From NCBI GenBank assembly GCA_965215775.1, contig CBDCEG010000027.1, positions 101,860 through 165,859 on the forward strand: a stretch of DNA of 64,000 bases. Direction: 5' to 3'. Of this stretch, positions 39,615 to 39,744 are shown piece after piece; within the stretch, counting starts at the first letter, position 1; the number at the start of each line of letters is the position of its first letter. The notes under the pieces are model-generated. The model was not told the DNA's origin and did no database searches. It saw only the letters and a list, made by a program, of their open reading frames with translations. Source of the stretch: Cardiobacteriales bacterium. Lineage in GTDB: Bacteria > Pseudomonadota > Gammaproteobacteria > Cardiobacteriales > Ostreibacteriaceae. Position numbers and translations under genes: made by a program.

Positions 39615-39724
39615 TTTATTTTCCTCTTATTTTTTAATGATTATTATTTATTAATTTCACTTATTTTATTTATATTTTTTATAGCAATAATTATAACTTA
39701 ATTTTTAATAATAAAATAAATATT

Positions 39725-39744
39725 CCACTTCTGTTTAGAAACCA
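39725..39744. mobile_element. Solo IS30-family inverted-repeat-like remnant
   Basis: 18 of 20 positions match the outer end of the IS30-family element at 46034-46053 (ccacttctgtttagaaacca vs gcacttcggtttagaaacca). Confidence 0.5.

Follow-up and report, generated by a model that had tools for sequence, protein, structure and literature searches.

How have two small groups of genes, kept apart by a run of core genes, come to share short stretches of DNA? The question is raised by the window analyzed here, the whole stretch of 64,000 nucleotides that corresponds to C27:101860-165859 in a draft genome of 1.99 Mb (29% G+C, 33 contigs, 93% complete). Three short modules, designated (a), (b), and (c), connect the two islets or connect one of them with an insertion sequence (IS), and a preliminary description had proposed that the islets are related by transposition or recombination, either as remnants of one mobile unit bounded by IS30 or as alternative cassettes at two sites. 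All three modules exist where they had been placed, to within one base. It is reasonably likely that modules (a) and (c) are recombination joints of islets that draw on one pool of T6SS effector and immunity genes, that module (b) is an IS scar, and that islet 2 has lost its effector; the modules would then differ in origin.

Both islets, together with the housekeeping genes directly upstream of them (HAD and waaA), lie on the minus strand. Islet 1 occupies the interval between rnhA (35403-35852, plus strand) and the gene for a HAD hydrolase (39752-40435, minus strand; stop codon at 39752-39754). In order of transcription, and all on the minus strand, it consists of a PAAR-fused toxin gene (38439-39614), the immunity candidate imm165, encoding 165 amino acids (37952-38449), and the lipoprotein genes lipo1 (37195-37779), lipo2 (36570-37100), and lipo3 (35861-36454), the last of the islet. 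A 52-codon fragment between imm165 and lipo1 gave no significant match. The 5′ ends of lipo1 and lipo2 (37747-37793 and 37068-37114, covering RBS and signal peptide) are conserved at 86-90% DNA identity, as are their 3′ ends (37195-37263 and 36546-36614, covering the last 14 codons and downstream flank), while the bodies share only 31% protein identity, making this pair another mosaic with conserved ends.

Islet 2 fills the interval from waaA (48818-50098) to the glutaredoxin-like gene grx (44639-44884) and has six genes. The first is tm146 (48295-48735, minus strand), encoding a 146-amino-acid membrane protein of immunity type, followed by the Tai4-like genes tai4a and tai4b, tm100 (46954-47256, minus strand), and the Tai4-like tai4c (46537-46911, minus strand). 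The last gene is tai4d (46028-46447, minus strand), also Tai4-like and with a GTG start, next to which lies an IS30-family element. The core genes that separate the two islets are murB, a sigma-54 response regulator gene, recX, queA, and grx.

A T6SS gene set in working order is present in the genome, comprising tssC, two hcp, six vgrG, and a second PAAR gene. The vgrG loci lie on contigs C7, C14, C15 (two), C26, and C32. The second PAAR gene stands alone and encodes 97 amino acids (C7:6186-6461), with an IS3-family end and an IS30-family copy shortly downstream of it; apart from its similarity to the PAAR domain of the islet 1 toxin, no paralog of any islet gene was seen in the rest of the genome. 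Pfam and NCBIfam detected no integrase in the set searched, which consisted of the 12 islet proteins and the flanking genes examined. An integron-like or other site-specific cassette system was considered and rejected, as no integrase came up in that set and module (a) has only two copies, at one boundary per islet.

Before any common history is considered, the likenesses themselves must be weighed against chance matching in AT-rich, low-complexity DNA, an explanation to which the base composition of the genome (29% G+C) and the very AT-rich character of module (a) lend some weight. When islet 1 was plotted against islet 2 in 100-bp tiles, module (c) scored 44 and module (a) 36, compared with a maximum of 21 for random genomic tiles, and the two signals were collinear and on the same strand. 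One more AT-rich tile pair rose marginally above background; it was judged meaningless. Module (a) reached a Smith-Waterman score of 38, whereas shuffled sequences averaged 17.4 (sd 2.6, z = 7.9). The 21-mer shared by its two copies has only these two occurrences in the genome, and an nhmmer profile built from both copies recovered just those two across the whole genome (E values of 9e-9 and 8e-7), the next match having an E value of 5.7. The 33-mer of module (c) is likewise unique to its two sites. For a match of 18/20 to the IS terminal repeat, as seen in module (b), the expected number in the whole genome is 0.004, and a control with 40 shuffled motifs produced no such match. Finally, among 108 low-copy short repeat pairs of 45-200 bp in the genome, only 5 have both members on one contig at a distance of 5-20 kb, and this small set includes modules (a) and (c). 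The preliminary description had cautioned that module (a) might partly be due to chance in low-complexity sequence; given the shuffles, the profile search, and the uniqueness of the 21-mer, this is very unlikely. For modules (b) and (c) chance is refuted, and as a general account of the likenesses it is extremely improbable.

Module (a) lies at the upstream edge of each islet, directly behind a housekeeping gene on the same strand. Copy 1 (39655..39716, minus strand) is about 62 bp long, contains a perfect TATAAT followed by the exact 21-mer, and stops 40 nt short of the ATG with which the PAAR toxin gene begins. Copy 2 (48753..48815, minus strand) starts 2 nt past the stop codon of waaA, at the head of islet 2, and its homology to copy 1 stops 14-17 nt before the ATG of tm146. 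The 21-mer is found at 39659, as had been reported, and again in the second islet at 48757, one base away from the coordinate originally given; a shared 14-mer starts at 39689 and 48786. In each copy, taken on the minus strand, the elements run as follows: TATTATT, 4-5 nt, ATTAAGTTATAATT with the perfect TATAAT inside, a variable 8-nt spacer, the exact 21-mer, and AAA. Overall they are 85% identical over 60 bp. From the perfect -10 element and its position, module (a) can be described as a putative promoter with a probable sigma-70 -10 box. A consensus promoter scan did not call this TATAAT, because there is no good -35 hexamer upstream. In addition, a scan for terminators between the core genes and either islet found none, so that read-through from HAD and waaA could make a promoter unnecessary. 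The leaders showed no RNA structure beyond that of shuffled sequence, and there were no Rfam matches in the region from 35.0 to 50.5 kb. Pattern scans of genome and metagenome collections yielded no other copy of module (a), and in the profile search of this genome it was absent upstream of the second PAAR gene on C7 and of any other T6SS gene.

The origin of the DNA that follows module (a) in islet 2 can be traced through homologs of tm146, which occur at 61-77% identity in metagenome contigs of similar G+C. In four of these (L030, L031, L032, and L033) the homolog begins 2-3 nt after the gene for a 376-389-amino-acid effector with an N-terminal LysM domain, and homologs at 75-77% identity come directly after the LysM effector of loci of the VgrG-DUF4123 type. 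The genes of such a locus in L030 and L033 are, in sequence, VgrG, DUF4123, a gene encoding 124 amino acids, the LysM effector, and the tm146 homolog. Based on this placement of its homologs directly downstream of an effector in T6SS loci, tm146 is predicted to be an immunity-type gene. The closest homologs of the islet 1 toxin (71-78% identity over the toxin part) have LysM instead of PAAR, and in a further contig (L034) a homolog of the toxin C-terminus (71%) occupies the same slot of the same type of locus, followed by a homolog of imm165 (65%). The two effector types have only the LysM N-terminus in common, at 48-77% identity over about 85-95 residues. Since homologs of imm165 and tm146 fill one slot, the two would be immunity genes of alternative cassettes for that slot. 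The earlier proposal of alternative cassettes agrees with these more distant contigs, in which both the toxin and immunity gene of islet 1 and tm146 have their counterparts in the same VgrG-DUF4123 setting.

The same contigs are organized more broadly as a polymorphic-toxin layout on LysM heads. Their loci (L030:1-5982, L033:1-5499, and L034:1-4954) contain two successive slots, each with an effector and then a variable small immunity gene, and the slot effectors combine a LysM N-terminus that stays constant with a C-terminal toxin that varies. Behind the tm146 homolog, L030 and L033 have a gene for a 200-amino-acid CHAP-domain protein.

No homolog of the LysM effector was found in the genome under study when the L030 and L033 effectors were used in tblastn searches (E < 1e-5; assembly 93% complete), and tm146 is thus taken to be an orphan. 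A probable trace of such an effector is present. A junction piece of about 20 nt (48736..48756, minus strand), sharing a few bases with the end of module (a), has its homologous counterpart in L030 and L033, where the final codons of the LysM effector gene and the RBS stand in front of the tm146 homologs. The same junction motif also follows the stop codon of tm100 in L029, the contig of a close relative discussed below. In a five-way alignment the head of islet 2 proves to be chimeric: it resembles islet 1 up to ...AAGT(A/G)AAA, and from AACCAAGG onward it resembles L030 and L033 (and also L029). Beyond these roughly 20 nt, no effector remnant was seen in islet 2.

This breakpoint bears on a second explanation of module (a), namely that it is an old cis-regulatory element kept by selection for joint control of the two islets, with no recent recombination. 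The -10 block and the 21-mer are intact (14/14 and 21/21) while the 8-nt spacer and the -35 region differ, and both copies are equally placed relative to the first gene of their islet, all of which would be expected of a selected element. By our own estimate, however, exact runs as long as 14 and 21 are nothing out of the ordinary when 60 bp align at 85% identity. Downstream, the two copies are followed by unrelated, not merely diverged, genes, the sharp breakpoint in islet 2 abuts homology to an effector 3′ end and so has the appearance of a junction rather than of gradual decay, and there is no third copy upstream of other T6SS genes. Preservation by selection is therefore on the unlikely side, though it deserves to be kept in mind, and recombination is the preferred origin of the pair.

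Module (c) is a joint of another kind, situated at the opposite end of the islets. Copy 1 (36396..36472, minus strand) comprises the 5′ UTR, the RBS, and the first 17 or so signal-peptide codons of lipo3; copy 2 (46389..46468, minus strand) is the same 5′ module on tai4d, bordered upstream by an IS3-family end. The 33-mer that had been reported is identical at both sites, which are its only two occurrences in the genome, and the homology extends to 80 bp at 82.5% identity. The genes that bear the module, lipo3 and tai4d, are otherwise unrelated, and each is the last gene of its islet. Past the module, lipo3 goes on to a lipobox of its own and to a mature part without database homologs apart from the copy in L029, whereas tai4d has a lipobox and a mature part of the Tai4-like family. 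In the closest homolog of tai4d (76% identity) the lipobox half of the signal peptide is alike and the N-terminal half is different, which indicates that the 5′ module was exchanged, with the joint inside the signal peptide. The generic AGGAAAATAAAATGAAAAA start region, found repeatedly in this genome, is a trivial similarity and is distinct from module (c).

Further evidence that the islet genes are rearranged comes from a contig of closely related origin. For lipo3, database searching turned up a single relative, a protein 99% identical to it and encoded on ENA contig ERZ25071447:ctg68759 (here L029); no other homologs were found. L029 is 97.6% identical to C15:79378-84276 of this genome, and this level of identity in core DNA indicates that the contig comes from a close relative. 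Upstream of the shared core DNA, L029:1-1700 carries an array with a broken lipo1 (88%), an intact lipo3 (98.6%), and an intact tm100 (95.7%). It has no lipo2, and there is a unique 50-bp spacer between lipo3 and tm100. The array adjoins a CCP_MauG gene, and no IS-like repeat was seen there. At the corresponding site in the genome under study, a LysR-type regulator gene is disrupted by an IS (C15:77760-79378). Genes that are split between two islets here are thus found as one array at a third chromosomal site in the close relative. The unequal identities within the array also speak for a mosaic of recombined pieces; as L029 is a metagenome contig and its lipo1-lipo3 join falls inside a 69-bp repeat, that join could be an assembly collapse. 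Other comparisons were less informative. Look-ups of the exact HAD, grx, and rnhA proteins returned no sister-strain records, and in the only other genome of the same family (G001) the common order is limited to response regulator-murB-HAD, and neither islet interval is informative. The genome under study and the close relative behind L029 also share a family of tandem units of about 1 kb, with mutual identities of 73-85%, which takes up about 20 kb of C15 (C15:18333-38326), occurs at C12:55-3400, and is found in the relative at L029:6778-11228.

The third module, (b), leads to the insertion sequences. The intact IS30-family element of the window (44987..46055, minus strand) is 1069 bp long and encodes a 320-amino-acid transposase that scores 285 bits against NCBIfam NF033563 (cut-off 80) and matches Pfam rve and HTH_38. 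It has the features of the IS30 family, with a DDE transposase, terminal repeats (26 bp and imperfect, 17/26 positions matching), and a 3-bp duplication. The genome has about 50 copies that are 97-99.7% identical, and nearly all of the 38 full copies have matching 3-bp flanks. The window copy lies in the 3′ end of tai4d between a target duplication AAA|AAA, and when its flanks are joined, the empty site so restored can be aligned with the paralogous tai4c without interruption. Its own duplication and the unbroken empty site identify it as a late, simple insertion in the 3′ end of tai4d and not as an islet boundary.

Module (b) itself (39721..39746, plus strand) is a degenerate, solo terminal repeat of the IS30-family type, the outer end of which faces the HAD stop codon. 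The match of 39725-39744 to the IS end at 46034-46053 is 18/20, as had been noted, and over the full 26-bp terminal repeat it is 20/26. In a genome-wide search, module (b) was the only site outside the IS copies within 6 mismatches of the 26-bp repeat. Its inner flank is no more like the IS interior than shuffled sequences are, its outer flank shows no significant similarity to the IS flank, and no partner repeat was found at the rnhA end of islet 1. Searches of genome and metagenome collections for the terminal-repeat pattern common to module (b) and the IS gave no match. A preference of the IS for repeat-like targets was rejected, since the flanks of the 38 IS copies are AT-rich without a repeat-like motif. 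The module is best read as a probably old and decayed IS scar that would have had no part in carrying the islets.

These observations decide most of what can be said about a composite transposon, in which the islets would be remnants of one IS30-bounded unit with module (b) and the IS at 44987-46055 as its ends. Module (b) is truly repeat-like, with its outer end pointing outward to HAD, and decay that leaves repeat remnants is documented for ISApl1 and mcr-1 (PMC5821093). But the IS carries its own AAA|AAA and interrupts tai4d, the uninterrupted form of which is seen in the paralog; between module (b) and the IS stand HAD, murB, the sigma-54 response regulator gene, recX, queA, and grx, all core genes; the rnhA end of islet 1 is without a partner repeat; the flanks of module (b) resemble the IS or its flank no more than chance would have it; and in L029 the genes occupy another site, where no IS-like repeat was seen. 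Neither two flanking IS ends nor an outer target duplication, the defining features of a composite transposon, were found. The model is largely refuted, and common carriage of the islets by an IS30-bounded unit is highly improbable. Of the relationship proposed in the preliminary description, the part that invoked recombination stands, on the strength of the repeat pairs and the L029 array, and the part that invoked an IS30-bounded mobile unit falls.

A different role for IS DNA would be as the source of the islet heads. On this view an extinct IS30-family element left one of its ends behind, with module (b) as its terminal repeat and module (a) as its subterminal promoter region, and that end became joined to the PAAR gene and, minus the repeat, to tm146. 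In islet 1 the order of repeat-like sequence, module (a), and gene start mirrors that of the living IS, whose transposase start is 94 bp from the outer end, and module (a) begins 7 nt from the inner edge of module (b). Known IS sequences have also turned up among putative mobile promoters (PMC3575422). Direct comparison is less favorable, as module (a) scored 13 against the subterminal region of the living IS, the shuffle mean being 11.5, and 275 of 1000 shuffles scored as high. Moreover, islet 2 has no repeat-like sequence beside module (a), and neither module (a) nor the terminal-repeat pattern turned up in any genome or metagenome record scanned. Such an ancestry for module (a) is quite unlikely, and the reading of modules (a) and (b) as a recombination joint and a separate scar is retained.

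Other IS traces are present within islet 2. A second IS30-like scar (46933..46952, plus strand), in which 14/16 of the outermost positions match the IS end at 46030-46055, is located directly behind the stop codon of tm100, at the exact point where the signal-peptide DNA of tai4c is truncated and its first half is lost. At the equivalent position L029 has a tm146-type start region instead. The solo end of an IS3-family IS (46477..46550, plus strand) lies between tai4c and tai4d. The full IS3-family element is 1265 bp long with two overlapping reading frames, its terminal repeats begin with TGTAATGG and TGAAGTGG, and it is present at 30 other places in the genome (for example, C20:51871-53135). 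Together, the IS3-family and IS30-family high-copy repeats make up about 8% of the genome. The scars at 46933-46952 and 46477-46550 fit, and lend support to, the passage of IS traffic through dispensable DNA.

The history that most likely connects these features begins with an islet 2 that was once a unit like islet 1, with head, effector, and immunity gene. Deletion or illegitimate recombination would have removed the effector, of which about 20 nt were kept, and the immunity array would have been left under the same head, with module (a) joined to tm146 at the sharp breakpoint. Separately, module (c), consisting of an RBS and the first half of a lipoprotein signal peptide, would have been exchanged between the unrelated genes lipo3 and tai4d. 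We infer the order and direction of these events, and likewise any promoter activity of module (a), from the arrangement of the sequences, whereas the alignments and searches show directly that the modules are homologous and confined to these sites in the genome, where the breakpoints fall, that the IS is a simple insertion, and how the genes are arranged in relatives. One feature is not accounted for by recombination joints. The upstream limits of the two copies of module (a) both lie 6-7 nt from a boundary, which is the inner edge of module (b) in islet 1 and the waaA stop in islet 2. A bolder view is that module (a) is a portable "cassette head," at once a promoter and a preferred recombination joint, that this lineage reuses to place T6SS effector/immunity cassettes directly after housekeeping-gene stop codons. 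If true, this would explain why both copies start 6-7 nt from the boundary as well as the array at a third site in the close relative, yet we regard it as very doubtful.

Whichever view is taken of its head, the locus shows at single-base level how the toxin gene of an effector/immunity islet can be lost while the head and the immunity genes are kept, and how 5′ modules (a putative promoter head and half a signal peptide) can be swapped between unrelated genes in an IS-rich genome. The analysis also tells true recombination joints from IS scars that only seem connected to them, and its value lies in annotation and in evolutionary bookkeeping for T6SS cassettes.

Conserved upstream regions and leader peptides ahead of divergent mature parts are characteristic of the "upstream homology box" genes of Borrelia and of the variable lipoproteins of mycoplasmas. 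Module (c) resembles these families in that the RBS region and signal-peptide DNA are common to proteins with unrelated mature parts. It differs from them in having two members only, in stopping in the middle of the signal peptide, and in showing no sign of a phase or antigen variation system.

Module (a) has its closest parallel in putative mobile promoters, which a survey defined as sequences with at least 80% identity over at least 50 nt that precede non-homologous genes in one genome, most families being pairs (Matus-Garcia, Nijveen and van Passel, 2012; PMC3575422). The pair described here falls within this sequence definition, with 85% identity over 60 nt upstream of the unrelated PAAR toxin and tm146 genes, and its promoter is itself putative. 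The survey used the region from -150 to -50 relative to the start codon, while module (a) spans about -100 to -40 in islet 1 and about -80 to -20 in islet 2.

For the IS scars, the transposon Tn6330 (ISApl1-mcr-1) provides a precedent, as partial ends of this IS30-family element stay beside the cargo after the body of the IS has been deleted (Snesrud et al., 2018; PMC5821093). Module (b) and the scar at 46933-46952 look like remnants of this sort. Unlike in Tn6330, there is no evidence that a pair of IS moved the islets, the sole intact IS nearby being a simple insertion.

The loss of an effector with retention of its immunity gene is known from the T6SS clusters of Vibrio cholerae, in which effectors are lost or replaced and immunity genes stay behind as orphan arrays (Kirchberger et al., 2017; PMC5361080). 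Those arrays are mosaics that arise through homologous and homology-facilitated illegitimate recombination, with short conserved junction pieces retained (PMC5361080). As with orphan immunity genes in V. cholerae, tm146 has been kept without an effector, and about 20 nt of an effector 3′ end remain. There are two differences: the islets described here lie behind HAD and waaA and not downstream of vgrG or a T6SS cluster, and the piece retained is a non-coding head common to a second islet, where in V. cholerae it is the conserved effector N-terminus. With no new mechanism involved, the two islets are a new example of known processes, ordinary cassette shuffling and IS decay.
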